Positions 8,646 to 43,966 of a stretch of 64,000 bases of DNA are shown piece after piece. The position numbers were made by a program, and so were the translations under genes. Source of the stretch: Porticoccaceae bacterium (lineage in GTDB: Bacteria; Pseudomonadota; Gammaproteobacteria; Pseudomonadales; Porticoccaceae); NCBI GenBank assembly GCA_002702725.1, contig PABE01000114.1, positions 35,843-99,842 on the forward strand, given 5' to 3'. Numbering within the stretch: position 1 is the stretch's first letter; the number at the start of each line of letters is the position of its first letter. The notes under the pieces are model-generated. The model saw nothing but the letters and a program-made list of their open reading frames with translations, did no database searches and had not been told where the DNA came from.

Positions 8646-8657
8646 TTGGGACATGCT

Positions 8658-26224: not shown

Positions 26225-26349
26225 CTCCCAGAAACCCGTAGTCAGAACAAGAGAACGACACCACTAACGCTTAACGATCCATTATCTGAAGAACACAAGA
26301 AGTGACGCTTGCTAGTCAGTAAGCATTCTAAATAAGGAAGGAACCTGAA

Positions 26350-26697: not shown

Positions 26698-26707
26698 AGG
26701 TGCCTAG

Positions 26708-28098: not shown

Positions 28099-28106
28099 TA
28101 TAAGCC

Positions 28107-28925: not shown

Positions 28926-29665
28926 TTATCAAGTACGGAAGCTATTCATTCGCTGATGGTGAATGCTCGATGATCAACTTCTCTGCGCAGCCAAAGCTAA
29001 CGCCTCGGCGAGTCAGAAGGAGCACGATCGTTCGGATGCAGTGCGCTGGCGAGTTTTGCTTTTCTGGTGCCGTAGATCAAGACGCTGTCAAGGCAAAGAT
29101 TGTTACTGCAAAGGCTGCGCTCGACCAAGACTACCAAGACTTGGTGATGCTACATAGCGACGGAACGACAGAGAGTCCGTATAAGCTTGAGAGTGGCGCA
29201 GCAAACAATGCCACTGGAAACATTGTCTATTACCAGAACTGGCCGTCCACGGCTCCAGAAGATTACGCCACGACGAAGCAGTTTCAGTTCGGCGTAGAGG
29301 CTGAATTCTACGATCCAAACCTGAGCCTCCTTGATTTCAGTCAGTCGATTCGGATTACCGGGACTACTGGTCCGATCAAGAGATGGATTCGCCTGCTGGA
29401 TGGAACATGGCAATCTCGCGTCATCCATACATCAAGCACGAAGAGGATCATCCAGGAAGGAAGGGCACTTGGTTTTGGCGCCTATCCTGTAGAACCGCCG
29501 CCAATTCTTGCTGAGATCTATGAGCATCTTGACCAAAGGCAGATCTTCCAGGAAGGCCCAAGCATTTTCTACTCTCGGCCTTACGAGTATCTGAAGACGT
29601 GGAGATATGTCTTCGAGACTCCGCTTGAGTTCACCCCGCTCAATGTCTATCCGCTGCTACGATGA
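28922..29665 (+). CDS. hypothetical structural protein (247 aa)
   Basis: GTGA overlap with the upstream gene. Confidence 0.5.
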   Translation: MIIKYGSYSFADGECSMINFSAQPKLTPRRVRRSTIVRMQCAGEFCFSGAVDQDAVKAKIVTAKAALDQDYQDLVMLHSDGTTESPYKLESGAANNATGNIVYYQNWPSTAPEDYATTKQFQFGVEAEFYDPNLSLLDFSQSIRITGTTGPIKRWIRLLDGTWQSRVIHTSSTKRIIQEGRALGFGAYPVEPPPILAEIYEHLDQRQIFQEGPSIFYSRPYEYLKTWRYVFETPLEFTPLNVYPLLR

Positions 29666-31089
29666 CCATCAAGATAACCTACGGCGATGCCAAGATCTGG
29701 AGCGCCGACCTTCTCATCAGTGCTGGCGCTCAACCAAGTCGATTTATCCTTGAAGGTGATATCCAAGGTGATCTCGATGATGTCGCGCCGATTCTCAGAA
29801 TTGACGATGGCGACACAGAGAGGATATTCGCAGACACTAGACTTCTGTCGATTGAGAACCGGCCATGTAGGTGGGGCGACGAGCTTTCATCCTATTACGT
29901 CATTGAAGATAAGAGATGGAAGTGGTGGGACATATTTGCTTCCTGTGACTACAACCGCCTGAAGTGCGACGGAGACAGGTATAACGACGCAACGTGTGGC
30001 GAGATCTTCGGAGATCTGCTGACACTCGCTGGCGAGGCGATCTTTGATGTCGGCAGCGCTAGTGACGCAATCTATCCGGTACTGCACTATGACGAGCAGG
30101 TTCCTGTTGGCAGGATGCTTCAGGACCTCTGTGAGCTGACAAAGCATACCATCGGATTCAAGGAAGATGGCAGCGTTAAGGTTTTTCAGCTAGGCCAGGG
30201 AAAGCTCCCGAATATCTCTGCGATCAAGAGTTTTCGACAATACACCAACCGAACAATCAATGACTTCAAAGTCATATCCAAGCCCACTCTTTTTGAGAGC
30301 CTGATCTCTGTCAACCCAGTTGGGATGGAATCAACTGGCGAGATCGTTGATCTGGATTCCGTCAGCTACAAGCCTGCTGCGGGATGGAGCGGAGAATGGC
30401 CAGGGCAGTTTAGCGGAGTTGCCTCTGCTTCTCAGTGGCTGGCGAACAAAAGCGTTTACCGACTGTTTGAGCCAAGCAGTGTGGAGAACGACCAGACGGC
30501 AGCTGCGTTCCCGCTAGATGGTCTGGAAATACTGGAAAACGGCGATTGCGCATATAACAGTATGAGAGGAGGAGTTTGCATTGACTATGTCATTGGCGAA
30601 TTCTGGCCTGAGTACCACCGAGGGGATGTCGAGACATCTGCAACAGACCACTGGTTTGGCGATGTTTCCGTAAAGGAAAACATCTTTCAGTTCGGCAGGC
30701 CTGTATTCAAGGTTGATGACGGCGCCGTATCTGAGCCAGTGCTGAAGATCAAGGCTTGGCATCGGCAGCGAGATGACGCCAATGGAGACTTCATTTTCGA
30801 GAGCCTTGGAAACGGTCCTGTTCGCGAGGCTTCTTGGGTTCAGCCTGTTGTCATCCACGATGAAGGGACAAATCTGACTGATGTTGGGAATCAGCTGACT
30901 GAATACAGGCGGATCTGCATCCAAGAGTCCAATATCGACACATCGATGGTTGTTTATGACGGGATCCAGAGTGTCGAAGTCAATGGAAATGTAAGGTCAA
31001 TTCGGCACAAGCTCAATCTGACAGCAAGCTCTGGTGGCGCTGACACGGAAGTTTACATAGGCGATGGCTGGGACGGCCTGCAGGTATGA
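29662..31089 (+). CDS. hypothetical large structural protein (475 aa; hub- or fibre-like by size)
   Basis: ATGA overlap. Its Arg codons are mostly AGA/AGG. Confidence 0.5.
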   Translation: MTIKITYGDAKIWSADLLISAGAQPSRFILEGDIQGDLDDVAPILRIDDGDTERIFADTRLLSIENRPCRWGDELSSYYVIEDKRWKWWDIFASCDYNRLKCDGDRYNDATCGEIFGDLLTLAGEAIFDVGSASDAIYPVLHYDEQVPVGRMLQDLCELTKHTIGFKEDGSVKVFQLGQGKLPNISAIKSFRQYTNRTINDFKVISKPTLFESLISVNPVGMESTGEIVDLDSVSYKPAAGWSGEWPGQFSGVASASQWLANKSVYRLFEPSSVENDQTAAAFPLDGLEILENGDCAYNSMRGGVCIDYVIGEFWPEYHRGDVETSATDHWFGDVSVKENIFQFGRPVFKVDDGAVSEPVLKIKAWHRQRDDANGDFIFESLGNGPVREASWVQPVVIHDEGTNLTDVGNQLTEYRRICIQESNIDTSMVVYDGIQSVEVNGNVRSIRHKLNLTASSGGADTEVYIGDGWDGLQV

Positions 31090-31778
31090 CGCGCGGAGTA
31101 TCCGACCCTTTATTCATGGGGTCGCAGTGGCACGACTGTAAAAACGCCAGCGGGTCTAGCATCCCTCCGTACGGTGTAGCCGAAACGGTTGGCATGACGA
31201 CGATCACCGTCGATGGTGTGTCGAAGCCAGCGATATCCGTCCAGGCGCCAACGACAAACAATCCGGAAAAGCTGGTGTTTACTGGTCCGATGGGATGCCC
31301 GGCTGGTGGAACCGGGATTTGCCATGCGGAAGTTATTGGGTATGCAGCGCACTCCGGAACGCTCAGTACAAGCGCCAACTACGGGCTAGATGATGACGGC
31401 CCGCTACTTCAGGAAAAGGTTGGGAATTTCCGGGGGATTGGCGGAACATTCACGTCTGGTGGAAACAGCGTATCGCTCTTCTATCGGACGCCGAACACTG
31501 GCGCCAAGAAGATACTATTCACGATTGTTTCCGCGAGTGGATCGTCTGCAACAGTTCAGGTCAACAAGGCTACATGCAACCTGACGGAGATTGATGGGAT
31601 TGGCGTCAGTTGTTTGCTGACTGTGTACGACGACCTCGGGTGCCTATTGTCAGCTGCGGATTCCGCTGCGTGGGTCGGAAAGAAGGGAACTGCGGTGTTG
31701 ATGCAGTCACTTGACGAGGACTCCTGTGAGCCAACTGGCTCGTGCAGATGGGTCATTGACGCACTGTGCTGTCCATAG
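31086..31778 (+). CDS. hypothetical structural protein with a Cys-rich C-terminus
   Basis: ATGA overlap. The protein ends ...CRWVIDALCCP. Confidence 0.5.
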   Translation: MTRGVSDPLFMGSQWHDCKNASGSSIPPYGVAETVGMTTITVDGVSKPAISVQAPTTNNPEKLVFTGPMGCPAGGTGICHAEVIGYAAHSGTLSTSANYGLDDDGPLLQEKVGNFRGIGGTFTSGGNSVSLFYRTPNTGAKKILFTIVSASGSSATVQVNKATCNLTEIDGIGVSCLLTVYDDLGCLLSAADSAAWVGKKGTAVLMQSLDEDSCEPTGSCRWVIDALCCP

Positions 31779-31787
31779 GAGAGATAT

Positions 31788-32372
31788 ATGTCACTCCTGA
31801 CAATGCTGTGCTGTTGCGACGAATCGAGCAGTTCTTCTTCATCCAGCAGTTCATCAAGTTCGAGCAGTAGTTCGTCGAGTTCTAGCAGTTCGTCCAGCAG
31901 CTCGGAAAGCTCAAGCAGTTCTTCGTCGTCAAGCTCAAGCAGCGATTCATCAAGCAGCAGTTCGTCTTCGTCGAGCAGTTCGTCGTCAAGCTCCAGTAGC
32001 AGTTCGTCGAGCAGTTCGAGTTCATCGAGTTCGAGCAGCTCAAGTAGCTCAAGCAGTGACTCGTCTAGTAGCTCGTCCAGCGATTCGCTCAGCAGCGAGA
32101 GTGCCAGCGAAAGCACAAGCTCTGAATCTGTCTCGTTAAGCGACAGCGTGCCTAGCGAGGAGGATCCTTGCGCCTGCCCAAGCCCTCCTGTTGTTGTGCC
32201 CGGTGGACCACAGCCTCCATGCGGCGATGTGTATTTCGGCCCATGCGTGGCAACGCTTCCAGGCGAAAACTGCGACAGCCTGCAATGTACGTTTGAGTTT
32301 GATGGAACGAGATGGAGATTGATCCTTAACTGCTACGGCGAGAAGGTAGAGGAGATCCCAAGTTGCCCATAA
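31788..32372 (+). CDS. poly-serine repeat protein with a Cys-rich C-terminal domain
   Basis: AGGAGAG lies 7 nt upstream of the ATG. The product is MSLLTMLCCCDE, then a tract of about 125 residues that is mostly Ser with sparse D/E, then a Cys-rich ~60-aa domain. Confidence 0.7.
   Translation: MSLLTMLCCCDESSSSSSSSSSSSSSSSSSSSSSSSSSSESSSSSSSSSSSSDSSSSSSSSSSSSSSSSSSSSSSSSSSSSSSSSSSSSSDSSSSSSSDSLSSESASESTSSESVSLSDSVPSEEDPCACPSPPVVVPGGPQPPCGDVYFGPCVATLPGENCDSLQCTFEFDGTRWRLILNCYGEKVEEIPSCP
31824..32160 (+). repeat. low-complexity serine-coding tract
   Basis: Near-continuous Ser codons using all six codons (AGC, AGT, TCG, TCA, TCT, TCC) in an irregular order. Confidence 0.9.
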
Positions 32373-33580
32373 GCACCCAATGTGAGCATCTTAGTGACGG
32401 AAAATGCGAGATCGCATCAAAGCACGCTGGAATGCCGATCGTGGTAAACAGCAGTGGATGCGAGGCGTGCCTTGCTAATCCGAATCCAAAGCAGATGAAC
32501 CACCCCATGGCAAGCATGTGCGTTGTTGCCATGATCAAAGCCGATAGGTTCAGGACGCCTGAGTATCGCGAGATATCAAAGCACATCCAGTCGCCCGAGG
32601 AAAGGTGCGAGAACACTGGAACCTGCAAGGAAAATGCATTCGGCCCAGGAACTGAACTTAAAGAGATCGTTCCCAAGTTCTTCGAGCGAGGCAAGTGTTC
32701 GTGCAAGAGCTACGCTGCCAAGATGGATCGGTGGGGCGTAGACGAGTGCGAGCAGCGATTTGAAGAGATCGTCGATCACTTAGTCAAGCAGGCAAGCGGA
32801 TGGGCGGTGCCAGCCTTTGCTTCTCGCGTTGTCGCGCGGCGATGGCTGCGCATGGCAATCGATAATGCAAAGTCTGACTGGCCTTTTGTGTGGGCATACT
32901 ACGCAAAAGAGGCAAAGGGAGATGAGCTTCGGTACTCGATTCGATCGCTTCTCAAATGGAAGCCTGACGCGAGAGTGATCTTAATTGGCGACAAACCTGA
33001 CTGGTATGGCGGAGAGTTTTACGAGAAGCCAAGGATCGGACCAACGAGCTTTCAGGCATTCAAGGACTGCTACTCGAAGCTCCAGATGGCAGCAACGATC
33101 GTAGACAAGTTCGTCTGGATGATGGACGACATATACTGGGTCAGCGACTTTAAGATGTATCACGCCACTAGCCCGAAGTATGTTCGGCATGTTACACAAG
33201 AGCAGTTCTACAACTGGAAGCCAAAGAATGCTTGGGCGAAGACTCGCGCCAACGCCTATTCATACCTACTTGAAAACAGTCTTCCGACGTACGACTTTGC
33301 TGGTCACCTTCCGCAGCCAATCCGATCCAAGACATTCTTGGAAATGGAAGACGAACTTGGGTTGCTGGAAGAGTATCGAAACTGGGAGTGCATTTACTTC
33401 AACAAGTATTACTCTCAGCACGCCATACCTTACGCAAGCAAGTATACAAGAGTTACCAAGGAGCCGAAAAGAATCTCTCCGAAAGGTGTTCTGCTCAATC
33501 ACACGAGTTCGACGTACGGCGGGATGGTGCGCGAGTATCTTGAGAGTGCATTCCCAGAAAAGTGCGCGGTGGAGAAATGA
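32363..33580 (+). CDS. Stealth-like hexose-1-phosphate transferase with a Cys-rich N-terminal region
   Basis: GDELRYSIRSL, RVILIGDKPDWY and FVWMMDDIYWV match my recollection of Stealth conserved region 2 (ELRYSLRS ... IVTD.Q.P.WL ... F.Y.NDD.F). The start is uncertain (TTG 32363 or ATG 32432). Confidence 0.5.
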   Translation: MPISTQCEHLSDGKCEIASKHAGMPIVVNSSGCEACLANPNPKQMNHPMASMCVVAMIKADRFRTPEYREISKHIQSPEERCENTGTCKENAFGPGTELKEIVPKFFERGKCSCKSYAAKMDRWGVDECEQRFEEIVDHLVKQASGWAVPAFASRVVARRWLRMAIDNAKSDWPFVWAYYAKEAKGDELRYSIRSLLKWKPDARVILIGDKPDWYGGEFYEKPRIGPTSFQAFKDCYSKLQMAATIVDKFVWMMDDIYWVSDFKMYHATSPKYVRHVTQEQFYNWKPKNAWAKTRANAYSYLLENSLPTYDFAGHLPQPIRSKTFLEMEDELGLLEEYRNWECIYFNKYYSQHAIPYASKYTRVTKEPKRISPKGVLLNHTSSTYGGMVREYLESAFPEKCAVEK

Positions 33581-34212
33581 CATACGATGCCACAGTGATT
33601 ATCCCGTGGAGGGAGTGCCCATCGAGGCGACCCGGATTTGACTGGGTCCTTCGGTACTATCGCCATCGTTTTGACAAGGTGATTGTCAGCGAGCAAAGCG
33701 ACGGAAAGTTCAACAAGTCAGCTGCAATCAACAGCGCGATCAAGCACTGCAATCCAAAGCCAGAGGACGTTTTTGTAATAGCTGACGCCGACTGTTTTAT
33801 TGCTGACTGGGCAATGGAGGCTGGGATCAGCAAGGCGAAAGTGTCAAACAAGCTCGTCAGGCCGCACAAGAGATATCTTCGCACGAGCAAAGAACAAGCA
33901 GAATTTATCCTTCAGCAAGACCCAACCAAAAAGATATTCTTTCACTGGTTCCACAAGAAATTCAACCGCTTCAAAGCAAAGGGCGGTGTGTGGATCATTC
34001 GATTTGAAGTCTTCGATAGAACTGGCTGGATGGACGAGGGGTACGTTGGATGGGGTGGAGAGGATAGCGATTTCATTGCGAGATGCGGATCCGTTGTGAT
34101 GAATGGACCGCTCTACCACATCTGGCATGAGCCAGCGCCAGACAAGAGTTTTTCAAGTCCTGGATGCAAGCGTTTTCACGAGAAGTTTCGCCGCAGGAAA
34201 AAAAGACGATGA
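33577..34212 (+). CDS. GT-A fold glycosyltransferase (GT2 / beta-4-GalT C-terminal type)
   Basis: Motifs TVIIPW, FNKSAAINSAI, DxD-type VIADADC, GWGGEDSDF and LYHIWH. ATGA overlap at 33577. Confidence 0.7.
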   Translation: MTYDATVIIPWRECPSRRPGFDWVLRYYRHRFDKVIVSEQSDGKFNKSAAINSAIKHCNPKPEDVFVIADADCFIADWAMEAGISKAKVSNKLVRPHKRYLRTSKEQAEFILQQDPTKKIFFHWFHKKFNRFKAKGGVWIIRFEVFDRTGWMDEGYVGWGGEDSDFIARCGSVVMNGPLYHIWHEPAPDKSFSSPGCKRFHEKFRRRKKRR

Positions 34213-35027
34213 AGCGAGCGATCTTCTTTGAAGTGAAGAGATGCTACAGAATTTACATGTGGCCTATCTTCCGCGAGATGGAAAGGCGTGGCTACAAGTG
34301 CTATTTCGCTGGTCCTAAAACTAGACGATCGAAGTGGTACTGCGACTACGGTTTTGTGTGGAATGGGCATGATCACCGAGTGTCTAAGTTCAACAGATAC
34401 CTCAAAGAATCTGGCATTCCACATTCGTTCATTGAGTCTGGGTATTTCTCGCAACTGAATCACTCGTTTGTCAGCAGAGCTGGGTCAATCGGACGGTTTC
34501 TCTTCCTTGACGAAAAGATTGAAGATCCAACTGGAGAAGACATGGATCTGGTACAGCGCAAGAGCAGTTCATACGTCCCAGGATACACATACAAATACCT
34601 TGGCCATATTGCTGGGATGCTTCAACTGCAAAAGGACACATCGATCAAGACGCAGAGCGACTTCAAGGACTCGCAAGAATTCGTTGACAGGGTTGAGTCA
34701 GATCACCCGAATGACAATGTGATATTCAGGCCACACCCTTACGAACGAAACGTGAGACTGCGAACCAGTAGCCCATTGAGTAGAAGTAGAACTATGTGGG
34801 ATCACGTTCTTCCAGCACGGAAGGTTGTCGGAATCAATAGCACTTCGCTTTACGAGTCGGTTCTCGCGGGTAAAGAAGTCGTGGCTTACGGAGATTGTGC
34901 TTTAAGCAGGAATCCTGACAACCACATTGGCGTCGTTGCTGAAATCATCAAGAGGGAAATCCACGTCGATGCGGACAGGTGTGGGGATCAGCTCGAAAGA
35001 AGCCTTGGAGACGAAGCACCACGATGA
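34209..35027 (+). CDS. capsule-synthesis-like (KpsC/KpsS- or TagF-like) glycosyl/phosphotransferase
   Basis: FRPHPYE ... KVVGINSTSLYESVLAGKEVVAYGDC resembles the HP ... NSTvGfEAl..GkpV..G signature. ATGA overlap at 34209. Confidence 0.45.
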   Translation: MKRAIFFEVKRCYRIYMWPIFREMERRGYKCYFAGPKTRRSKWYCDYGFVWNGHDHRVSKFNRYLKESGIPHSFIESGYFSQLNHSFVSRAGSIGRFLFLDEKIEDPTGEDMDLVQRKSSSYVPGYTYKYLGHIAGMLQLQKDTSIKTQSDFKDSQEFVDRVESDHPNDNVIFRPHPYERNVRLRTSSPLSRSRTMWDHVLPARKVVGINSTSLYESVLAGKEVVAYGDCALSRNPDNHIGVVAEIIKREIHVDADRCGDQLERSLGDEAPR

Positions 35028-35578
35028 GGCAAAAGATTACGGAGATATTCAGGCTTGCGAGGCTTTGTGGATCGCTTGGGTGCGAGAGCTACCTTGAGGT
35101 CGGATGTGCTGACGGAGAGACTTTTCTTTCGATCGGAAGCACGATGAAGAAAGCCGTGGCTGTAGACATGCCCGGAATGAAATGGGGGACCGTCAAAACT
35201 GGCCCAGTTCTGGCGAGAAGAGTTTCAGACATGCGAACAAAACTCGGTGTCGACTCGCACCTCATAATTGGCGATTCTTCTGACGACAGTGTTGTTGACA
35301 GAGCGATGAAGCTTGGACCGTATGATCTTGTTTTCATAGATGGTGACCACACATACGATGGAGTTAAGCGTGACTACGAAAACTATGGCCCTATGGCAAC
35401 AAAAGCCATCGCGTTTCATGACATCATTGGAAACGGCATGAAGTTTCGTGACGGAAGCAAGGTTGAGGTTCCTATCCTATGGAAAGAGATATCTTCGTCT
35501 CTAAAGACAGTCGAGTTCTCGGAAACTTGGGGCCAGATGCCAATGGGGATCGGCGTGATCCTTGTCGGCGAGAGATAA
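35024..35578 (+). CDS. class I SAM-dependent methyltransferase (Methyltransf_24-like)
   Basis: Motifs YLEVGCADGETF and VFIDGDHTYDGVKRDYENY. ATGA overlap at 35024. Confidence 0.65.
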   Translation: MRQKITEIFRLARLCGSLGCESYLEVGCADGETFLSIGSTMKKAVAVDMPGMKWGTVKTGPVLARRVSDMRTKLGVDSHLIIGDSSDDSVVDRAMKLGPYDLVFIDGDHTYDGVKRDYENYGPMATKAIAFHDIIGNGMKFRDGSKVEVPILWKEISSSLKTVEFSETWGQMPMGIGVILVGER

Positions 35579-35910
35579 AGTCCTGGGGAATAGCAACCAG
35601 CGTCTTCACGAACAAAGACACTCACGTTTCGGTTGCTGAGATTCTGTCTGGAGGGAAGTCCAGCGTTCACAGGCACATCAAGTTCGACAACATCCTGTGC
35701 GTAATAAGTGGGCAGATTCGAGTCGATACCGACAAAGACAGGTACTTTCTTTCGCGCGGCGAGTCAGTGAGGATTCCATCTGGATTGCTCCATTCGTTTT
35801 TTGCAGAGCAGGATTCGGTGGTGGCAGAAGTCTATGTTCCTCCTGGGACCATGGGCGGCGCAGAGTTCAAAGATATACACAGGGTCATTGGCCCTTCAGA
35901 AGGAAACTAG
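35479..35910 (+). CDS. cupin-domain protein
   Basis: Motifs GGKSSVHRHIKFDN and GESVRIPSGLLHSF (G-x5-P-x-G-x2-H). The start is uncertain: an ATG at 35479 overlaps the methyltransferase by 100 nt. Confidence 0.55.
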   Translation: MERDIFVSKDSRVLGNLGPDANGDRRDPCRREIKSWGIATSVFTNKDTHVSVAEILSGGKSSVHRHIKFDNILCVISGQIRVDTDKDRYFLSRGESVRIPSGLLHSFFAEQDSVVAEVYVPPGTMGGAEFKDIHRVIGPSEGN

Positions 35911-35921
35911 GGAGAAGTGAA

Positions 35922-37994
35922 ATGGCATACGGTGGTAACAGCTCTGCTGCAGGGTACGGATACAGTACTGCTGGAAACAAATCAATTGGCGATGCTGCCA
36001 GGAAATACATGAGCAAGCAAACTCCAGCGCAATCGCGCTATCAATCCAGCCAGTACGATTACAGTGGCGTTCTTGGTCAAAACAGTCCGATCAATCGAGA
36101 TCCAAACTCCGCAGCAAGGGCAAGGTCACTGCCTGGAAGCCAGTACAGCGCAGCTGCAGAGTCTGCTTATCAATCCAGCCAGCCTCAAATCAGCAGTGGA
36201 GTGCCAAACTCGCAGTACGGCGAGGCGGCAAGGCAACTTGCTCAGCAGCAACAAGCATTGCAGCGAGATCAACAAGCGCTGAATAGCTTTCGCGCGGACG
36301 CAAACGATATCCACCAGCAATCCCTGTCGAGTGCTGCTGCGCGACGTGCGTCAAATCCTGCTTTGCAAACCTACCAGAACATCCAGGACTCAATGCAGAA
36401 ATCTGGCCAAGCTGCGATGGGTGACTACGCAGGGCAGACGAATGCGCTTGCAAACTCGATGGCAAGTCGTGGCGCTGCTGCCGAAGCTTACGGCAACGCT
36501 CGATATCAGGCTGCGCAAAATCCAGTGACGTACAAGGGTGTTACTGTCAACCCTGCTGCAATCGCTGCAAATAAGACGATGAGCCCTGGCCGTGCTGCGA
36601 TGCTTGCGGCAAACGGGTACGAGGTATCTCCCGAGGGTGTTGTGCAGCAACAGGGACCAAAGAAGATCGTTGGCCAGAACATCGGCGGGACCGCTGCGGA
36701 AGTTGCCCAGCAAATCTACGGAGGCACTGGCGCTGATCTTGCCGCAGAGGCTCGTCGGATCGGCCAAGCTCGTTATCGCTACGGGATTCCTGAGGATGGT
36801 GGAGGATCTACTCCACAGACTCGGGAGGATCTGATCAATGCTCGCAATGATTTGACTATGCAGGAAAAACAGGATTACATTTCCAAGAGTCAACAGCGAG
36901 ACAATCCTTACAGTCCCGAACGGATGGCTCGCATGGAGCGATACAACAATCGCCAACAACAGAAGGCGACTGCTGGTCAGATCGCACAACAGCAGGCGAG
37001 AAACGCACAGCTCGGTCAACTTGCTCAGGCCGCTGCGATGGGAAGTGCTCCTGCGGCAGAAGCGTTGGGGCAGATTGCGAGGAGCCAAGCGTACGCACAG
37101 CAGGGCATGATGCAGAACCAACTTGGCTATGCTCAGATTGCGTCCGATCAAGCTGCGCGGCAAGCAGAGCAGCAGTGGAGAGAAAAGCAGTCTGAAAGAC
37201 AGAACCGACTGGACATGGCGAATGCTGCAATTCAACAAGCCGAAGTCGAGAGGGCTCGTGCGAGAGATGCGAGGGAATCCAAAATTGCAGACGCAAAGCT
37301 AGCGCAGGCCGAGTTCGAGTTGGACCAGGCAAAGAGGGAGGCTGGCAATCAGGCTCCTGGGTTTAACGATCTAGTGAACCAAGCGCTGACGCAGTACCCA
37401 GAAGCAACTCCGGCTGACGCAAGACAGATGGCGATGGTTGCCCAAGGAACCGACTCGATTAACCGTGCTGTTGAGGCAGGTGATCGCGGAGCTGCTTTGT
37501 TATCGACCGTTCCGGCGAGCGCTGAATATGGCCAAGCGATGGAGCCGATGGCTGCTGTCGATGACTACCTAAGCCGAGTATCCCAGTCGATTGGACTCGG
37601 CAATGAAGGCATTGGCAGTGTATCACCAGAGATGCTGATGAATGGATTCTCGGAGAACGGATTGAGCGCTGCTGATGCTCGCAAGTTTGCAGAAAAGCAA
37701 CTGAAGGGGATTGGCGCGAATAACACCATGAATGCGTCTCCTGGTGTTCCGACAATCGAAGAGCTTCACTCAGTTGGCCAAGTGACAGACGACACCTTCG
37801 ATCGCATCCAAAGATTGAATGCCGCAAGGAAGGCGATTGGCATGCCGCTGCTAACTCTCAGTGGAAAGGCGCTGCCGAAAGAAATGGGGCGAGCAAAGAC
37901 TTATGAAAGCGGATATGCAAGCGTTCCAGGGCCAGTTGGCGCTATTTCTGAGTTCGCTATGACCCTTCAGGATCTGCTCGAAGGCAATAAATAG
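35922..37994 (+). CDS. Q/A-rich 690-aa protein (internal-virion or ejection-protein-like by composition and position)
   Basis: The ATG at 35922 is preceded by GGGAGAAG. The upstream part of track ORF 35697-37994 overlaps the cupin gene. The product is extremely Q/A/S-rich and coiled-coil-like. Confidence 0.6.
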   Translation: MAYGGNSSAAGYGYSTAGNKSIGDAARKYMSKQTPAQSRYQSSQYDYSGVLGQNSPINRDPNSAARARSLPGSQYSAAAESAYQSSQPQISSGVPNSQYGEAARQLAQQQQALQRDQQALNSFRADANDIHQQSLSSAAARRASNPALQTYQNIQDSMQKSGQAAMGDYAGQTNALANSMASRGAAAEAYGNARYQAAQNPVTYKGVTVNPAAIAANKTMSPGRAAMLAANGYEVSPEGVVQQQGPKKIVGQNIGGTAAEVAQQIYGGTGADLAAEARRIGQARYRYGIPEDGGGSTPQTREDLINARNDLTMQEKQDYISKSQQRDNPYSPERMARMERYNNRQQQKATAGQIAQQQARNAQLGQLAQAAAMGSAPAAEALGQIARSQAYAQQGMMQNQLGYAQIASDQAARQAEQQWREKQSERQNRLDMANAAIQQAEVERARARDARESKIADAKLAQAEFELDQAKREAGNQAPGFNDLVNQALTQYPEATPADARQMAMVAQGTDSINRAVEAGDRGAALLSTVPASAEYGQAMEPMAAVDDYLSRVSQSIGLGNEGIGSVSPEMLMNGFSENGLSAADARKFAEKQLKGIGANNTMNASPGVPTIEELHSVGQVTDDTFDRIQRLNAARKAIGMPLLTLSGKALPKEMGRAKTYESGYASVPGPVGAISEFAMTLQDLLEGNK

Positions 37995-38167
37995 CCGATC
38001 CGGCGAGTATCAGCAGCGGAAGAACCTCTCCGGCTATGACAGGATCAAATCTCCGGTCTTCCCTTCTTCCAGCTCCATACTTGAGCGAGTTGTGATGGTA
38101 ACTAAACAGTATCCACGCAGCAACAATCGCAATAAAAAGCACGACAAGACGACGTACTAGGGCCATC

Positions 38168-41100
38168 ATGGTTGATCTTCTCCGAGCTGCTAGGCTAGGC
38201 ACTACGCCAGCCATCCAGGACAACGAAAAAAAGCAGCAGCGACTAACTCCGATCAGGGCGGCTACTAACCGCGCTGAGCCAGATCAGTCTATCTTATCAA
38301 GTCTTGCTAGTACAGGCTTGAGTGGACTGGCGAAAGTCGGGAACTTTTTGGACCTTCCTGGTTCGGTCGTGCGCGATGTCAGCACCTGGCTCCCAGGCGG
38401 AATCGAAGCGCAGAATCCAGTCGATCAGTTTCTTTCCCCATTCACTTCAGAGAACCGTGTCTCCGGCGAAGACATGCTCCAGTCAGCAGGTCTTGCTGGC
38501 GAGAACACTTGGGGCGGATTGGCTGGTGGAATCGCAACCGAAATCGCGCTTGACCCTTTGACTTATTTGAGTTTTGGCGCGTCGGCTGTCGGAAAAGCTG
38601 GAACAGCCGCTGGCAAGGCTGGCCTCACTAAGAACGCCAAGTCGGTCGCGAACGAACTTGCTGGCCGAACTCTAGGCAAGGAGTCAGGCAAAAGGCTTGG
38701 TGCTACCAGCGCGAGGCAAACGCTAACGCCGCGCAATCTGATTGACGCTGCTGCGGATCCAGCGGAAGCGATGAAGCGATTCAAGGTGGCTGGTGGCACT
38801 GATGCGATGCTCGATGAGAAGCTCGGTGGAGTTGCGAAGTTTTCTGTTCCATTCTTGTCGAAGCGATACGGAGATACTGTCCCCGCCCTGCGCGAACGAG
38901 TCCTGGGGACTACCGACCTGACGCCTTCGCAGCTCGGCGCTAAGCCTTGGATGAAGGGTGGCGATGGCCCAAGCGGTCCCGATGCAGGTAGTGCCGCAAA
39001 GCCAAAGTCACCTCTGGATCCGAATGCTGACACTGGCCTGAAGAACCCGACGCCTGAAGAGTTCTCGGCTATCTCTCCGAACCACGCTCGGTTCAACCAA
39101 GAACTAGATGGTCTTCAACAGAGTGGTATTCTTGACGACGCTGACTCTGAGATCCTTCGCGGAATCTTTAGCCAATCAGACCTTGGCGGATTCGATCGAG
39201 TTTACTTCCGTCCAGTCAAAGAGATCTCGCCTGAGGCTACTCCCGAGATCGTGTCTGCATACGGCGCGAATGTTCCAGAAATTGGCGGTGCTGCAACAAA
39301 GACTCCCGATGGCGGATTTGATATCCAGCTTTCTCAAAAGGCGCTGGCTGATGGAAACTACGTCGACACCGGAATTGACACTCTCGTTCATGAGATCGGC
39401 CATGCTTTTTTGGAGACAACGAAGAAGCCACAGGGCGAGGCTGGCGTTGATGTTGTTTCTGAGTTCGACAATCTGATCAAAGACGGGACTCTCGGTCGAT
39501 ACTTCTCCGACAACTACGGCCCTGAGAAGGCAGCATACTTCGGACAAAATCCGCACGAGGCATTCGCTCAACTGTTCGCCGACTCGGTTATCAAGCGCAA
39601 GGGCCAAGAGATGCCCAAGCCAATCGAGTCATTCTTGGGCAAGGTGCGCAAGTTTGTTTCAGACATGCTCTCAAAGGTCCTTGGAAACAAGCAGCTGAGC
39701 GGTGAGGCAAGGCTGCGAACCGATGCGATGATTGACTTGGTCGGAGGATTTATCGGTCCAGATCAATACAAGTCGATTATCGGAAAGGCTGACTCTGCAT
39801 CGTCCAAACTGGATTTCTACAAGCCAGCTACGAGAAAGATGCCTGGCATCGAGCCTGATGCCACTGGGATGTTCAGTCAAGTCGCCAGATCTCTTGACGC
39901 CATATTCCGCGAGTCGAGTTCGCTTCCTGCTGACCAGATGCTTGCTAGGCTGAGAAAAATGCCTGGAGTCAAAGAGGAGGAGATTGCTGACCTTGGTCTT
40001 GACAAGCTCAGTGGAAAGCGACTCAGTCGAAATGACATCACTGACCACCTCAGCAAAAACATGCTCACCATGGAGGAGGCGATCAATACTGGAGACCGCG
40101 CTGGTTTCAGTGATCTTGCAGTTCCTGGTGGCGATGATGGAACTTACCGAGAACTTATCCTCAAGGCCAATGCAGGTGGAAAGCGAATTGAGGGCGGCGC
40201 CGATACTCACTGGATGGGCGATGATTCGATTGCGCATATCCGGCTTGACGATGTTTCGCTTGCGAACGGAGAGAAGATTCTGCGAGTCAATGAGATCCAG
40301 AGCGATTGGATCCAGGGGCTGCGCAAGTTCGGAACGAAAACCGAAGATTTGCAAAGCGAAGCGAAGTCCATCAAGAAGGAAATGTCTGGCAACGCAGTTG
40401 AGCTTTTTCTCACAAGGCAGCAGATCAAACAGCTTGGAGAAAACGCACCCCCAGAGTTGCTTGCAAAAGAACAGTCATTGACTCAGAGTGTCGAGCAAGC
40501 AAGCTCTCGCATAACTCAGATCGGAAAGATGCCAGCCGATGCCCCGATGAAGAAGTCGTGGGACAGCATGGCCATCAAAAAGATCTTCGACTATGCAGTC
40601 GCAAATGGGTATGACGGAGTTTCATTCGTCGACGGCCAGGATATCGCAAAGGTTGTTCAAGGTCCTGCTGATGCACTAAGTGGCTTCTATAACAAGGTTC
40701 AAACTCTCGCCGGAAAAATTGCAAAGAAATACGGAAGCGGAAAGGTATCGAACGAGAAGCTGGCCGGTCAATTCATCAACGACAGCGAGGAATTGCGCCG
40801 TGGTGTGACGTTCCCTGTCACGGACGAGATGCGAAACACGATTGGCTCAGGTGGACAGCCGAGATACAAACCAGCGGAAAAAGTGGCCGAAGCCGCCAGC
40901 GCTGCTAAACAAGGAGCAACTAAGGCGGCATCGTACGCAAACGACATGGCAAGGAGAGCGTTGTCGTCAGTCGGTGAGCTTGCGCTAGATAAAGATCTTG
41001 GTGCTGCTGTCGGCGCCACAATGGACACTGTTGGAGGATTCTTCAAAAACTCTGCGCCAGTGAGATACCTTCGCGCCACCATCACCCCAGAGATGCTTGG

Positions 41101-43966
41101 CGCTTCAACCGAGCTTGGGCAGGAGATCGGCCAAAAGCGATTCGAGGCTTTGCAAGAGACGAAATATGAGATGCGGAAGCGAATGTTTCCGATCGCAAAG
41201 CAATTCCTCCAGAGCGAAGCACTTGACTACGAAAAGCTCGTCGAAAAGCTTGGCGATGCGAAGAAGGCAAGAGGCGTTCTTAACACGAATTACCTGGAGG
41301 TGACTCGCTATCTTGAAGGTGGCACGGAACTTCTGGCTAAGGGCCAATCTCCAAAACTACCCGACGAACTGAAGCCGCTCATTCCTGCGATGGATGACAT
41401 TCGCACTGCGCTGGATGAGATCAGGCAGACCGAAATCAACAGCGGCCTCAAGTCTCCTCAGCTGGACGACATGTTCATCGACTACTTGCCTCGCCAGTTA
41501 CAAGGGTTCCCGAACGACAAGTCGACTGGTTCTGGGAACTTAGGCAAGTTGTTTGAATTCGGAACTCCTTACCAGAAGCAACGCAAAGAATTTTTGCGAA
41601 ATCTTCCAGGCGGAACATCCTCGATCAACAAACTGTCTCTTGATCCGCTTGTTTCGGGAATCGCCCATAGCTACCCTGGGTCTAAGATACCGGACGATGT
41701 CCTTCAGGAAGCAAAGAAGTACCTGCGTGAATCATACGGCGGTGGTCAAGCAGGAAATAGAGAGCGAGATAGTATCTTCCATCTTGACATGGATGACAAC
41801 AACAACGACTTGGATAAGCTTGCTCGGTGGATCACTGGTCTAGATCCAAGACATGCTGAACTCCAGGTTCCTGTATTCAAGCTTGATCCTGTTCAAAACG
41901 TGATGAACCGAATCGAATCTGGGCTTGCAGCGTCTTCGGCTGCTGATTTTACCACTGCGATGATTGCAAAAGCGGCTACCGAAGCTGGCGAAAATATATC
42001 AGATCCGAACTTGTACGATATCCTGGTGGATAAGTTTGCAGTCGACGGCGCGGACGGCGACAAGATCAAGGAAATCGTCATCGGAAAGATGGGAGAAACC
42101 TTTCAGACTAAGCGTTTCGCGATGCAAGATGCTGCTGACAAGCTTGCGAGATCTCAGGTCGATGAATTGATTGCGAAATCGAATGTTACTGAAGATGGGA
42201 TCTTGTTTGACGAGCCAGTCGTTGGTTCGATCGGTACAAGCAAGGCTAAGTTCCTCGGTGTCAAGGGTGATCAAGTTATCTATCAGTCTTCTGGCAAGAA
42301 AGGCTATGCTCCGCTTGACTCCATCGGTGGAAAAACTGTATCAGAAAACGATGTTCTCAAACAGTTTTCTATTCCTCAGCAACTGAGTGATGCGACATTC
42401 AGGTATCTCAAGGGGTTTACTTCGCCTGAGGCACCCGATGCTATTCGCAAAGCACTGGGTCAAATCACTAGCCTATATAAGAGTCAGTTGACGATTCCTT
42501 GGCCAGCGTTCCATGTGCGCAACCTGCTGAGTGGTCAGTATGCAAACTGGCTGAACAACGCAACTGACCCTCGATATTCCGGTCCTCGCGCGATGGTCGA
42601 GCCGATTCGCGATGCGGACAGAGTTTTCAGAGGAGAATCCATACCTGACATCCTGAGCATTCCAGCGATTAAGGAGCTGGGGATAACCGATGAGTCTCAG
42701 GCTATGGAGTGGCTGCGCCAGGAGATCTTTGCAAACAAGCTTGTCGACTTTGGCCAAGGGATTTCAGCAGAGGCAGCTGCGAACAACTTGTCAGATATTC
42801 GCTCTCAGGTTGTCGGCCAAGTTCCGAAGAAGCGACGAGACATACTCGCTAAGTTGCCTCCGAGGCCGATTGGCGCATCGAAAGCGCAATCGTTCAATCC
42901 GTTGGCCGGAGCAGGAATCCTTGGTGCGACAGAGGATACATTTGGTCCGTATCGCTGGGGTCGGCAGGTTGGTGCATACACCGAGGGAATGAACCGCATT
43001 GCTCCTTTCATAGCATTTCTTCGGCAGGGGATGGACTCGCAAGAAGCTATGCGTCGAGTTCTTGCTGCACAGTTCGACTACAGCAAGATGACTCCGGCAG
43101 ATCGTGACATCAAATTGTTGATTCCGTTTTATGGATTTTCGCGAAACGTCCTGCCGTTCGTCGTCGGCAATCTTGTTCGCGATCCAGGCGGCGCGTTAGG
43201 GATGACAGTTCGCGCCACAAGAAACGCATCGGCAAGTCAGCCGTTGCCAGACTATCTTGCTGGCCAAACTGCAATCCCGTTTGGTACGCGAGGTGATGTG
43301 TCGGAGGGTAATTCGTCGTTCCTGACAGGATTTGGATTGCCGCACGAAGACACTCTTGGTCTGGCTGGTCTAGTAACAGGCGATCCAGCAGATGGCTTCA
43401 GGAATATTTTGTCTCGGATGAATCCGCTTGCCAAATCGCCGCTTGAATTGGCGTTTGGTGAGTCTACTTTCTTTGATGCCCCTGGAGGTGGGAGAGCACT
43501 GAAAGATCTTGATCCATTGGTTGGCCGTATTGGATCGAATATCAAAGACTTGGCGACTGGGTCTGATACCATGCGTGCTCAACCAGTCATGGGATCTCCA
43601 TTACTAGAGCATGCGTTAGCTAACAGTCCGTTCAGCCGCGTCTTGACGACAGCGAGAACTATTACCGATCCAAGAAAGTGGAAGAACCCACTGAAACTTG
43701 GCCTCAATCTAGGCACAGGGATGAGAGTGACCGACGTAAGCGAAAGCTCATGGGACGCAACAGTCAGCGACTTGATCTCAGAGAGAATGAGAGAGCTAGG
43801 CAGTCGCGATTTTGTCAGGAGCTATTTTCCGCAATATGCGCAAGAAGCAATGACAGACGAACAGCTTTCAGAAGCAAACTCACTGGAAGAGTTGATGAAC
43901 TGGTTAGCGAATAGAGCTAAACAGCGCAAGGCCGATCGAGAGGCTAAAGCCAATGCGCAAAACTAA
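38168..43966 (+). CDS. giant 1932-aa protein with a zincin HExxH motif (polyvalent/ejection-protein-like)
   Basis: Uninterrupted 5.8-kb ORF. VHEIGHAF lies at 39386-39409 (HEIGH at 39389-39403), with a downstream NPHEAFAQLF at about 39548-39577. It is the last gene of the plus-strand arm. Confidence 0.75.
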   Translation: MVDLLRAARLGTTPAIQDNEKKQQRLTPIRAATNRAEPDQSILSSLASTGLSGLAKVGNFLDLPGSVVRDVSTWLPGGIEAQNPVDQFLSPFTSENRVSGEDMLQSAGLAGENTWGGLAGGIATEIALDPLTYLSFGASAVGKAGTAAGKAGLTKNAKSVANELAGRTLGKESGKRLGATSARQTLTPRNLIDAAADPAEAMKRFKVAGGTDAMLDEKLGGVAKFSVPFLSKRYGDTVPALRERVLGTTDLTPSQLGAKPWMKGGDGPSGPDAGSAAKPKSPLDPNADTGLKNPTPEEFSAISPNHARFNQELDGLQQSGILDDADSEILRGIFSQSDLGGFDRVYFRPVKEISPEATPEIVSAYGANVPEIGGAATKTPDGGFDIQLSQKALADGNYVDTGIDTLVHEIGHAFLETTKKPQGEAGVDVVSEFDNLIKDGTLGRYFSDNYGPEKAAYFGQNPHEAFAQLFADSVIKRKGQEMPKPIESFLGKVRKFVSDMLSKVLGNKQLSGEARLRTDAMIDLVGGFIGPDQYKSIIGKADSASSKLDFYKPATRKMPGIEPDATGMFSQVARSLDAIFRESSSLPADQMLARLRKMPGVKEEEIADLGLDKLSGKRLSRNDITDHLSKNMLTMEEAINTGDRAGFSDLAVPGGDDGTYRELILKANAGGKRIEGGADTHWMGDDSIAHIRLDDVSLANGEKILRVNEIQSDWIQGLRKFGTKTEDLQSEAKSIKKEMSGNAVELFLTRQQIKQLGENAPPELLAKEQSLTQSVEQASSRITQIGKMPADAPMKKSWDSMAIKKIFDYAVANGYDGVSFVDGQDIAKVVQGPADALSGFYNKVQTLAGKIAKKYGSGKVSNEKLAGQFINDSEELRRGVTFPVTDEMRNTIGSGGQPRYKPAEKVAEAASAAKQGATKAASYANDMARRALSSVGELALDKDLGAAVGATMDTVGGFFKNSAPVRYLRATITPEMLGASTELGQEIGQKRFEALQETKYEMRKRMFPIAKQFLQSEALDYEKLVEKLGDAKKARGVLNTNYLEVTRYLEGGTELLAKGQSPKLPDELKPLIPAMDDIRTALDEIRQTEINSGLKSPQLDDMFIDYLPRQLQGFPNDKSTGSGNLGKLFEFGTPYQKQRKEFLRNLPGGTSSINKLSLDPLVSGIAHSYPGSKIPDDVLQEAKKYLRESYGGGQAGNRERDSIFHLDMDDNNNDLDKLARWITGLDPRHAELQVPVFKLDPVQNVMNRIESGLAASSAADFTTAMIAKAATEAGENISDPNLYDILVDKFAVDGADGDKIKEIVIGKMGETFQTKRFAMQDAADKLARSQVDELIAKSNVTEDGILFDEPVVGSIGTSKAKFLGVKGDQVIYQSSGKKGYAPLDSIGGKTVSENDVLKQFSIPQQLSDATFRYLKGFTSPEAPDAIRKALGQITSLYKSQLTIPWPAFHVRNLLSGQYANWLNNATDPRYSGPRAMVEPIRDADRVFRGESIPDILSIPAIKELGITDESQAMEWLRQEIFANKLVDFGQGISAEAAANNLSDIRSQVVGQVPKKRRDILAKLPPRPIGASKAQSFNPLAGAGILGATEDTFGPYRWGRQVGAYTEGMNRIAPFIAFLRQGMDSQEAMRRVLAAQFDYSKMTPADRDIKLLIPFYGFSRNVLPFVVGNLVRDPGGALGMTVRATRNASASQPLPDYLAGQTAIPFGTRGDVSEGNSSFLTGFGLPHEDTLGLAGLVTGDPADGFRNILSRMNPLAKSPLELAFGESTFFDAPGGGRALKDLDPLVGRIGSNIKDLATGSDTMRAQPVMGSPLLEHALANSPFSRVLTTARTITDPRKWKNPLKLGLNLGTGMRVTDVSESSWDATVSDLISERMRELGSRDFVRSYFPQYAQEAMTDEQLSEANSLEELMNWLANRAKQRKADREAKANAQN

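Follow-up and report, generated by a model that had tools for sequence, protein, structure and literature searches.

This study describes a window of 64,000 nucleotides, the whole stretch of DNA analysed, from a Porticoccaceae bacterium, in which an arm of virion genes encoding TerL, the portal, the MCP, the TMP and tube genes ends in a gene of 1932 codons with an ATG start (Table 1). The initial annotation had regarded this open reading frame as closing the structural arm, and it is indeed the final gene on the + strand; from 44231 on, the genes lie on the - strand, among them those for MazG, a Holliday-junction resolvase, exonucleases and helicases. The start codon is supported by the homologs, which align with the 1932-aa protein from residue 1. 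Shortly upstream, at 33562-35578, the arm also contains non-structural genes, coding for a glycosyltransferase and a methyltransferase. As a true tape measure (TMP_3) is present in the window, the uncultured phage is probably long-tailed. A terminator closing the arm was represented by a single weak pattern match, which lies within the next gene and is no better than those in shuffled sequences, and no convincing transmembrane segments were found in the 1932-aa protein (maximum Kyte-Doolittle 1.25).

Table 1. Positions in the window of the 1932-aa gene, its modules and motifs, and its upstream neighbour.
Feature	Position	Strand	Evidence
A/Q-rich 690-aa protein, upstream neighbour, possible partner	35922..37994	+	composition; segment conserved in a related contig (L003)
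Whole gene, 1932-aa polyvalent protein	38168..43966	+	terminal gene of virion-gene arm; homolog alignment
N-terminal scaffold module, aa 37-232	38276..38863	+	homolog alignments; packs with C-module in AF2 model
Zincin cargo domain (gluzincin, M34-like 'MPTase'), aa ~296-540	39053..39787	+	alignments, profile searches, AF2
HEIGH catalytic motif, H408, E409, H412	39389..39403	+	the same in all of 40 module copies
E464, predicted third zinc ligand, conserved (E)E.FA..F helix	39557..39559	+	invariant; profile alignments
Domain 2, aa 568-857, common cargo domain without a name, probably enzymatic	39869..40738	+	alignments, profile searches
Domain 2 signature E709-I-Q711-S712-D713	40292..40306	+	deep alignment
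C-terminal scaffold module, aa 941-1932, mostly alpha-helical	40988..43963	+	homolog alignments, AF2 model, structural relatives
Conserved C-core, aa 1409-1865	42392..43762	+	aligns with C-terminal region of phi24B giant gene product

Pfam was matched neither by the whole 1932-aa protein and five segments of it nor by isolated modules taken from several homologs; the NCBIfam search and the search of PDB sequences with the whole protein likewise gave no match, and PHROGs returned one marginal match, to a family of unknown function. A nucleotide search of phage records found no match to the gene, searches with TerL and MCP did not find a close cultured relative, and pattern scans of bacterial genomes and IMG/VR found no close relatives of the protein. 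Homolog alignments, together with profile and structure searches of the kind that the initial annotation had recommended for finding domains, segmented the protein into an N-module, a zincin that is intact, a second domain (domain 2) and a C-module.

The N- and C-modules are common to all homologs (57/57) and form the scaffold of the family. The N-module, which is N-terminal in every homolog, is the best-conserved part, with 35-50% identity to distant homologs, and the C-core carries the motifs PAFHVRN, NRIAPF, QFDYS and IPFYGF. When the inserted part was deleted from the construct, AF2 modelled the two modules as a single all-alpha body (pTM 0.80, pLDDT 77). Nearly half of the homologs (28/57) have 1100-1350 aa and consist of the scaffold without cargo, and the existence of such forms lacking any enzymatic domain speaks for the scaffold serving in structure or delivery. 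The larger homologs contain variable inserts, including ART-PolyVal, LPD22 and DUF3990. The slot of last gene in the structural arm is the same for minimal homologs, ART-bearing homologs and gp37 of the Microbacterium phage Shocker, and the placement in L001, L003 and Shocker equals that of the 1932-aa gene.

A search of BFVD with the scaffold model gave 51 matches at E <= 1e-3, many of which bear the label 'large polyvalent protein associated domain' or carry Zeta toxin, LT_GEWL lysozyme, ART-PolyVal, RelA/SpoT or helicase cargo. With the same model, Foldseek found no match in the PDB, a library in which the T7 ejectosome structures are presumably included, and the scaffold matched none of the Pfam polyvalent-protein models, even at permissive thresholds. 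A Foldseek match to 'core proteins of phage E1004' (E = 4) was dismissed as noise. The polyvalent class proposed by the initial annotation is supported by the presence of ART-PolyVal or LPD22 in the closest homologs and by the polyvalent-annotated structural relatives, and the 1932-aa protein is a new member of this known class.

Concerning the first cargo domain, HEIGH (aa 408-412) is the sole HExxH in the 1932-aa protein, which contains 13 His in total, and 0.005 HExxH would be expected by chance. The HExxH module occurs at varied positions in 19 of the 57 homologs. H408, E409, H412 and E464 were the only invariant columns, both in 16 and in 40 copies, and the 40 copies are otherwise 10-43% identical to the window copy; the invariance of only HEH and the downstream Glu across such divergent copies is the pattern expected of purifying selection on catalysis. 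Judged from this conservation, the module is a genuine, intact gluzincin site, as the initial annotation had proposed in calling it a zincin, with H408, H412 and E464 as the predicted zinc ligands and E409 as the predicted general base. The AF2 topology comprises a three-stranded sheet, the HExxH helix and a Glu helix (pLDDT 85-93); the helix 398-417 (model residues 129-148), inside which HEIGH lies, comes after all three strands (76-81, 107-109 and 115-120 in model numbering), and E464 is located in the predicted helix 462-475. The HMM core of the module covers aa 393-527.

The profile searches of the PDB gave PPEP-1/Zmp1, the Pro-Pro endopeptidase of Clostridioides difficile (8e-4), and anthrax lethal factor (1.6e-3) as the top matches, the matches to M34 being marginal (8e-4 to 4e-3), and the alignments with PPEP-1 and lethal factor span the HExxH and the Glu helix. 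In PPEP-1, the third zinc ligand is carried by the 'EEFFAESF' helix, and E464 aligns with this helix. The initial annotation had sought the third ligand in the segment NPHEAFAQLF; the segment, NPHEAFAQLFAD (aa 461-472, ~52 residues downstream of HEIGH), was correctly chosen, but the conserved residue and predicted ligand is its Glu, E464, and not its His, H463. M34 PPEP-1/Zmp1 and lethal factor share with the window zincin an HExxH and a downstream 'EE.FAE.F' Glu helix at similar spacing, but the likeness is confined to a catalytic core of ~80 residues (E ~1e-3). Pfam gave no match to the zincin (best Reprolysin_3 at 0.06), and the window copy matched none of the MPTase-PolyVal or LPD Pfam models, even at permissive thresholds. 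Foldseek with the model of the two-domain insert found nothing significant in the PDB, zincins being absent from the top matches, and a word-index homolog search with the zincin segment returned essentially nothing. A match of the zincin profile to the ribosomal protein uL18 was judged spurious, as it covers a helical region outside the catalytic motif.

Domain 2 was found by exhaustive search in at least 13,783 protein clusters (50% identity), the representatives of which are nearly all proteins of 1000-8000 aa; the word-index search with the domain-2 profile, like that with the zincin segment, returned almost nothing, reflecting a limit of the tool and not biology. Its signature reads Y.E ... 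H.R ... E.QSDW.Q.GRK ... DAPF.KSW ... GYD ... G, in which E709 is conserved at 97% in the deep alignment, with Y660, E662, H690 and R692 as partner residues. The window copy keeps all 21 mappable positions among the 22 that are strongly conserved, and RVNEIQSDWIQGLRKFG and DYAVANGYDGVSFVDGQD, segments singled out by the initial annotation, are real, being two signature motifs of the domain. Based on this constellation of conserved polar residues, domain 2 is probably enzyme-like. It is linked to the zincin type of the window in 38 of 144 top representatives. Both domain 2 and ART-PolyVal are also found in giants encoded on Pseudomonas megaplasmids of the non-mobilizable class.

By sequence and profile searches, domain 2 had no relative in Pfam, NCBIfam or the PDB, and permissive thresholds gave no match to the MPTase-PolyVal or LPD models of Pfam either. 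An assignment to the GNAT acetyltransferases was considered and rejected: the Foldseek matches were all sub-threshold (E 0.1-1; AtaT at probability 0.77) and there were no Pfam or PDB profile matches. GNAT enzymes bind the pyrophosphate of acetyl-CoA through a Q/R-x-x-G-x-G/A loop before helix alpha-3, and inspection of domain 2 found no canonical acetyl-CoA motif before the helix starting at W798. An identity with LPD23 was also rejected, as LPD23 lies ~1000 residues from domain 2 in a Pseudomonas plasmid giant, and so was an IVP-A of the T7 gp13 type, no similarity to T7 gp13 being found.

Several comparisons place the 1932-aa protein among known systems. In the Stx phage phi24B, gp47 (2811 aa) is abundant in the virion proteome and was proposed to be an encapsidated ejection protein, polyvalent and with a metallopeptidase (bioRxiv 10.64898/2026.04.10.717836). 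The phi24B gene that we compared is vb_24B_48 (2807 aa), taken as gp47 from its size and because it is the sole giant late gene. The C-core matched the phi24B-group profile with an hhalign probability of 93.9% (E 1.5e-7, 392 columns), shuffled and reversed controls giving <= 0.1%, and Jackhmmer started from the phi24B giant protein reached the window protein at 9e-22; a single-pass HMM search gave nothing, the likeness being seen only in profile-profile comparison. By these data, the C-core is remotely homologous to the C-terminus of the phi24B product taken as gp47, over ~450 of the 1188 scaffold residues. Like the 1932-aa gene, gp47 is the last gene of its late operon, giant, polyvalent and equipped with a metallopeptidase. 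As to differences, no counterpart of the N-module was detected (E 0.077), domain 2 is missing from phi24B (E 0.23), and the zincins of the two are only faintly alike; the tail of phi24B is short, and the window phage has a tape measure gene.

The second system is the T7 gp16 family (IVP-D), members of which host lysozyme and cytoplasm-destined cargo such as the N4 vRNAP and the H66 gp60 methylase (Hardies et al. 2016, PMC4819975), and in which VT2-Sakai orf71, an ortholog from a Stx phage, is listed (PMC4819975). The window protein has the IVP-D trait of being large, extensively alpha-helical and encoded after the tail-tube genes, and both it and the T7 gp16 family are large, all-alpha and encoded where the block of tail and internal-protein genes ends; the likeness is nevertheless one of position, composition and logic only. 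The kinship with T7 gp16 drawn by the initial annotation fails as homology: the window scaffold gave hhalign probabilities of 1.2% with T7 gp16 and 0.6% with phiRIO-1 gp37, the phi24B-group profile gave 0.5% and 0.3%, respectively, and profile comparison found no homology with T7 gp16/gp15 or phiRIO-1 gp37/gp36. The carriers with experimental support are podovirus proteins.

A further known system is the class of polyvalent proteins described by Iyer et al. As in that class, the window protein is giant, multidomain and encoded among virion genes, its family combines a zincin with ART-PolyVal and LPD domains in the homologs, and giants of phages and plasmids exchange their cargo domains (Iyer et al. 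2017, J Bacteriol, PMC5512222). The polyvalent MPTase described there has a three-stranded sheet, an HExxH helix and a Glu-bearing second helix, the fold also modelled for the window zincin, with lethal factor as the nearest structure, and was proposed to cut the polyprotein and free its parts (PMC5512222). The arrangement differs, as the window cargo sits inside a split N/C scaffold and not, as in that class, attached to a MuF or portal domain. The cultured Microbacterium phage Shocker supplies a further member, gp37 (1743 aa, 'hypothetical protein'): hhalign gave 98.6% (E 9e-16) with collinear N- and C-modules, which makes gp37 a true scaffold-family protein. Its gene closes the structural genes, before the endolysin/lysis genes, and it has a different middle, in which the window zincin and domain 2 were not detected.

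Taken together, we consider it the better-supported account, held with some reserve, that the 1932-aa protein is a polyvalent protein of the phage type, with a zincin and domain 2 inserted into a conserved carrier scaffold, and that it would be packaged and ejected. The domain architecture, the intact catalytic residues, the placing of cargo within the scaffold and the synteny are direct results of the analysis: the N- and C-modules fold, as modelled, into one large all-alpha carrier body, and the two-domain cargo cassette is inserted at a permissive site between them. This scaffold would direct the protein into the virion and then out at infection. The zincin may cut the polyprotein to free its parts or else cleave host proteins, and domain 2 may act as an effector. 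We infer the link to the virion from the conserved terminal position in the arm and from the distant homology that links the C-core with the phi24B product; packaging, ejection, self-processing and an anti-defence role are likewise inferred. The upstream neighbour, which starts at M76 of a 765-aa open reading frame (A 16%, Q 11%) and a segment of which is conserved in the 1190-aa upstream gene of L003, is a possible partner in the ejectosome/effector pair suggested by the initial annotation, based on adjacency and this partial conservation. As the window contains a tape measure, the analogy with podovirus ejectosomes is not simply transferable.

A rival reading would be a structural virion protein, for example of the tail or baseplate hub or the internal head, that does not enter the host cytoplasm and whose zincin and domain 2 act at the envelope in adsorption or penetration, or only in virion maturation. 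The tape measure and tube protein in the window would make the late arm a tail module, a structural relative in Anabaena phage A-4L is annotated 'Tail protein', and LT_GEWL lysozyme is the cargo of some scaffold relatives. The phi24B authors, moreover, suggested that the gp47 metallopeptidase degrades peptidoglycan (bioRxiv 10.64898/2026.04.10.717836). Nevertheless, the ART, RelA/SpoT, Zeta toxin and helicase cargo on the same scaffold fold point to cytoplasmic targets, the scaffold is globular and all-alpha with no beta-rich fibre or hub fold, and no experimental backing was found for the A-4L annotation. We regard this structural role as rather unlikely.

A role outside the virion, as an intracellular, late-expressed multi-enzyme protein for anti-defence, host takeover or assembly proteolysis whose gene merely happens to come last in the late operon, is improbable in our view. 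It would agree with the interspersed glycosyltransferase and methyltransferase genes, with the giants of the non-mobilizable-class Pseudomonas megaplasmids that bear domain 2 and ART-PolyVal, and with the lack of proteomic evidence for the scaffold family, the literature having yielded no usable virion proteomics of A-4L, TR020 or Cellulophaga phages. Conversely, the terminal position in the structural arm is kept across very divergent phages, including Shocker, the C-core is homologous to the C-terminus of the phi24B giant taken as gp47, a virion-proteome protein, and the scaffold-only homologs would have no enzyme to contribute. Finally, it is very improbable that the HExxH module has degenerated into a non-catalytic remnant retained only as a spacer or structural element, as the missing Pfam match and the marginal E-values to solved zincins might suggest, in view of the four residues that are its sole invariant columns in divergent copies.

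The favoured reading, that of a carrier scaffold with inserted cargo, overturns nothing on present evidence and is consistent with the 2016-2017 framework. A broader proposal, which we put forward tentatively as the less probable extension, is that domain 2 represents a new enzyme superfamily and that the N+C 'split-anchor' scaffold and the phi24B-type C-terminus form an unnamed superfamily of virion carriers. Domain 2 may then be among the commonest cargo domains of injected phage and plasmid giants, often followed by a dedicated zincin, and split-anchor carriers, accepting cargo at permissive positions within the chain, may operate in both long-tailed phages and podoviruses.

Phages and plasmids presumably send polyvalent proteins before or with their DNA, as a payload that disarms the host, and the domains of these proteins are mostly uncharacterised. 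The 1932-aa locus provides a compact and dissectable example, with one scaffold, one protease and one enzyme-like domain, and Shocker gp37, as the cultured member of the family, allows a direct test of virion localisation. As the scaffold exists with and without cargo, it supplies natural controls and a possible chassis for protein delivery into bacteria. Domain 2, an extremely widespread orphan with clear candidate catalytic residues, is a target for the discovery of anti-defence or host-takeover enzymes.

The giant gene was found exactly as the initial annotation had described it, and its start codon appears sound, since several homologs of the product align with it from residue 1. It is the final gene on the + strand (listed below with the other late-arm genes); beyond it, from 44231, come - strand genes for a MazG-like pyrophosphatase, a Holliday-junction resolvase, exonucleases, and helicases.

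Positions (nt) and strands of the giant gene and the late-arm genes upstream of it
Feature	Position	Strand	Remarks
Large terminase	4376-6412	+	
Portal	6844-8295	+	
Protease/scaffold	8646-10163	+	
Major capsid protein	10216-11853	+	
Head-tail adaptor	13451-14215	+	
Tape measure, bona fide	16588-18786	+	TMP_3, 84.9 bits vs cut-off 41
Tube protein	27148-28098	+	Phage_tube_2, 27.8 bits, barely over cut-off 27
Family-2 glycosyltransferase	33562-34212	+	
Methyltransferase	34979-35578	+	Methyltransf_24
A/Q-rich upstream protein	35922-37994	+	690 aa from M76; A 16%, Q 11%
Giant polyvalent-protein gene	38168..43966	+	ATG start, 1932 codons

A search of 5.8 billion proteins returned 57 homologs of the window protein, all metagenomic, and their mapped local alignments revealed a modular plan. 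An N-module (aa ~37-232 of the window protein) and a C-module (aa ~941-1932, its conservation being highest over 1400-1930) were found in every homolog; in 28 homologs of 1100-1350 aa the two are directly joined with nothing more, and larger homologs, up to 3346 aa, carry additional material between them. In the window protein and the homologs nearest to it, the insert comes after the N-module; in the homologs P0016, P0022, P0025, and P0037 it lies just before the C-core (the conserved aa 1409-1865), at the equivalent of window aa ~1314-1397, indicating that the scaffold formed by the two modules accepts inserts at two permissive sites or more. The closest relatives are 42-47% identical over the shared parts and have, just before the C-module, an ART-PolyVal domain absent from the window protein; LPD22 occurs in one homolog and DUF3990 in one. 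These data demonstrate a carrier scaffold with internal cargo, which in the window protein comprises a zincin module followed by a second domain, here called domain 2.

The HEIGH motif reported earlier at 39389-39403 was confirmed at aa 408-412 as the sole HExxH of the protein; as there are only 13 histidines, 0.005 such motifs would be expected by chance. By an iterative profile search limited to the 57 homologs, 19 carry the HExxH module, whose location varies greatly from one to another. When 16 divergent copies were aligned, and later 40 (sharing 10-43% identity with that of the window protein), H408, E409, H412, and E464 were the sole invariant columns, and residues of an '(E)E.FA..F' helix came next in conservation. 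The downstream segment that had been suggested as the source of the third zinc ligand, NPHEAFAQLFAD (aa 461-472), does supply the predicted ligand, specifically by its glutamate (E464), and the module would therefore be a gluzincin. No Pfam model detected it. Profile searches against all PDB sequences were topped by M34 peptidases (Pro-Pro endopeptidase/Zmp1, 8e-4; anthrax lethal factor, 1.6e-3), with alignments covering the HExxH plus the Glu helix, and other zincins (Spartan, ACE, neurolysin) ranked below them. The AlphaFold model of aa 270-930 reached pLDDT 85-93 across the zincin and showed three strands, the HExxH helix, and the Glu helix; Foldseek of this two-domain model returned no zincin among the top matches. 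By its predicted residues, the gluzincin site is intact. Iyer et al. (2017, PMC5512222) describe this same fold, with lethal factor as its nearest solved structure, for a zincin-like MPTase that they name as the most frequent hub domain in polyvalent proteins.

The two other strings quoted in the initial annotation are real and proved to be signature motifs of domain 2 (aa ~568-857), which is common to nine homologs and a Dolichospermum phage giant. Its conserved positions are Y660, E662, H690, R692, G701, L705, E709, Q711, S712, D713, Q716, P793, W798, K804, A810, G814, D816, and G823, with E709 97% conserved in a deep alignment of 277 instances. The window copy keeps all 21 mappable positions of the 22 strongly conserved ones, and the signature is intact as judged from these residues. 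When 1.84 billion cluster representatives were searched exhaustively with HMMER, domain 2 was found in 13,783 proteins at E <= 1e-3 (6,971 at <= 1e-30), nearly all 1000-8000 aa long. No Pfam or NCBIfam model matched it, no PDB sequence did so even with a core-only profile, and Foldseek gave no significant match; a GNAT acetyltransferase assignment, the sole theme to recur among the Foldseek matches, was rejected, as those matches were sub-threshold (E 0.1-1) and no acetyl-CoA loop was seen to support them. Cultured phages with domain 2 include Pelagibacter HTVC028P, Pseudoalteromonas PH1, and the cyanophages with 'lysin' giants. The domain also occurs in a 5000-aa Pseudomonas aeruginosa megaplasmid protein (plasmid p382, NZ_CP115292.1 67300-82302; L009 1-13968) together with nine ART-PolyVal stretches, DUF3990, and LPD23, the namesake of the protein, from which domain 2 is distinct there. 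This megaplasmid is typed non-mobilizable, and the gene adjoins a tyrosine recombinase.

Among the 144 best domain-2 representatives, 38 have a zincin of the window type and only 13 the window-type scaffold, indicating that domain 2 and the zincin form a mobile cassette spread far more widely than this carrier. The zincin follows domain 2 in 34 of the 38 co-occurrences, with gaps from ~50 residues upward; the window protein, with its zincin first, shows the rarer order.

The scaffold was modelled as a delta-insert construct in which aa 37-232 were joined to 941-1932, a junction natural in minimal homologs, using a 45-sequence alignment. The model, a confident one (mean pLDDT 77, pTM 0.80), is a single, mostly alpha-helical body, and no convincing transmembrane segment was found in the scaffold. 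Foldseek returned nothing from the PDB and 51 matches at E <= 1e-3 from BFVD (top 7e-20), many annotated as 'large polyvalent protein associated domain-containing protein' and others named after Zeta-toxin, LT_GEWL lysozyme, ART-PolyVal, RelA/SpoT, or helicase domains. They include cargo-free, ~1100-aa proteins of cultured phages, namely Cellulophaga phi19:3 and phi46:3, Anabaena phage A-4L (annotated 'tail protein'), Arthronema virus TR020, Ralstonia phage Alix, and Arthrobacter phage GurgleFerb, along with a protein of Microbacterium phage Shocker, whose gp37 (1743 aa) is confirmed as a scaffold member by sequence (hhalign 98.6%, E 9e-16).

The terminal position in the virion-gene arm is conserved: the structural arm ends with the gene for the scaffold protein in the case of the minimal homolog P0018, of the ART-bearing P0002, and of Shocker gp37, each time downstream of a tube-protein gene and followed by lysis or divergently oriented replication genes. 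The window shares its tube protein and the 28922-29665 product with L001, a 64-kb contig with a minimal scaffold homolog; with another contig, L003, it shares the 29662-31089 and 31086-31778 products and part of the A/Q-rich protein. An Evr1/Alr sulfhydryl oxidase gene, unusual in a tailed-phage structural module, lies two genes upstream of the minimal scaffold gene (L001 7922-8308).

The initial annotation had drawn a parallel with T7 gp16. Hardies et al. (2016, PMC4819975) established by virion mass spectrometry and HMM-HMM matching that the podovirus internal virion protein D (T7 gp16 family) is large, all-alpha, and encoded after the tubular-tail genes; in their account it 'variably hosts' lysozyme domains as well as cargo bound for the cytoplasm, the N4 virion RNA polymerase being an example. 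The scaffold profile showed no similarity to T7 gp16 or phiRIO-1 gp37 (probability <= 1.2%) and so gives no support for membership in that family. A 2026 preprint on the Stx phage phi24B (10.64898/2026.04.10.717836) describes gp47, a polyvalent protein of 2811 aa that combines LPD5/LPD1/LPD38 with a metallopeptidase domain; it is reported to be abundant in the virion proteome yet missing from the cryo-EM map, and the authors propose it as an encapsidated ejection protein. We compared vb_24B_48 (2807 aa), the last late gene and only giant late gene of the record, taken to be gp47. Within the sequences gathered in this analysis, jackhmmer from its C-terminal 908 residues reached the scaffold family via intermediate giants, including the window protein (E 9e-22, aa 1408-1677). 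As iterative searches may drift, a separate phi24B-group profile of six sequences, none from the scaffold family, was compared with the scaffold profile. The hhalign probability was 93.9% (E 1.5e-7, 392 columns; window aa 1409-1865 against phi24B aa ~2210-2660) with the signature motifs aligned, and column-shuffled and reversed controls gave <= 0.1%. A single-pass HMM search for this link was negative, and the phi24B-group profile likewise showed no similarity to T7 gp16 or phiRIO-1 gp37. We conclude from these profiles that the window C-core shares remote homology with the C-core of a polyvalent protein confirmed in a virion proteome, with vb_24B_48 taken as gp47.

The window phage as a whole is without a close cultured relative: megablast of the giant gene gave zero matches, the TerL search had none at 1e-10, the MCP matched gut Firmicutes phages at merely 24-27% identity, and pattern scans of GTDB genomes and IMG/VR found no relatives. 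Phage tube genes usually precede the tape measure gene; here the order is reversed, with the tape measure ~8 kb upstream of the sole recognisable tube-protein gene and ~10 unannotated genes between and beyond them (second block 25008-38000). The glycosyltransferase and methyltransferase genes, directly upstream of the A/Q-rich and giant genes, may serve to modify the virion or the cargo. A 293-aa late-arm protein (22864-23745) with weak papain-like cysteine peptidase signals (PHROG 'peptidase' 1e-5; Pfam Peptidase_C1 0.006, under cut-off) may be a tail-associated lysin. Between the A/Q-rich and giant genes, the 173-nt 'gap' contains a 69-aa ORF with two hydrophobic helices (37957-38166, -), and L003 has a called minus-strand 68-aa gene at the identical position (9789-9995; 29% identity over 62 aa, pairwise E 7e-10); the late arm thus harbours a conserved gene for a small membrane protein in antisense orientation.

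Concerning function, the scaffold would carry the protein into the particle and then out of it at infection. The podovirus model is not simply transferable, since a true tape measure is encoded and the phage is probably long-tailed; in the virion, the protein may lie in the head interior or in the tail. The zincin may cut the polyprotein at its linkers, for which the low-confidence, low-complexity stretches around aa 233-295, 540-568, and 857-941 are candidates, or else host proteins; both roles were earlier proposed for polyvalent MPTases (PMC5512222). Domain 2 would be an effector enzyme. Since in other phages this scaffold fold carries ART, RelA/SpoT, Zeta toxin, and helicase cargo, which acts on cytoplasmic targets, delivery into the cell is favoured over a purely external role. 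Ejection, and the effector pair with the A/Q-rich protein envisaged earlier, are plausible. The core of the initial annotation, a zincin-bearing polyvalent protein, is supported, and the protein fits an already known class. Among its more novel elements are domain 2, unnamed and extremely abundant, and the split-anchor carrier scaffold, remotely tied to the phi24B protein.
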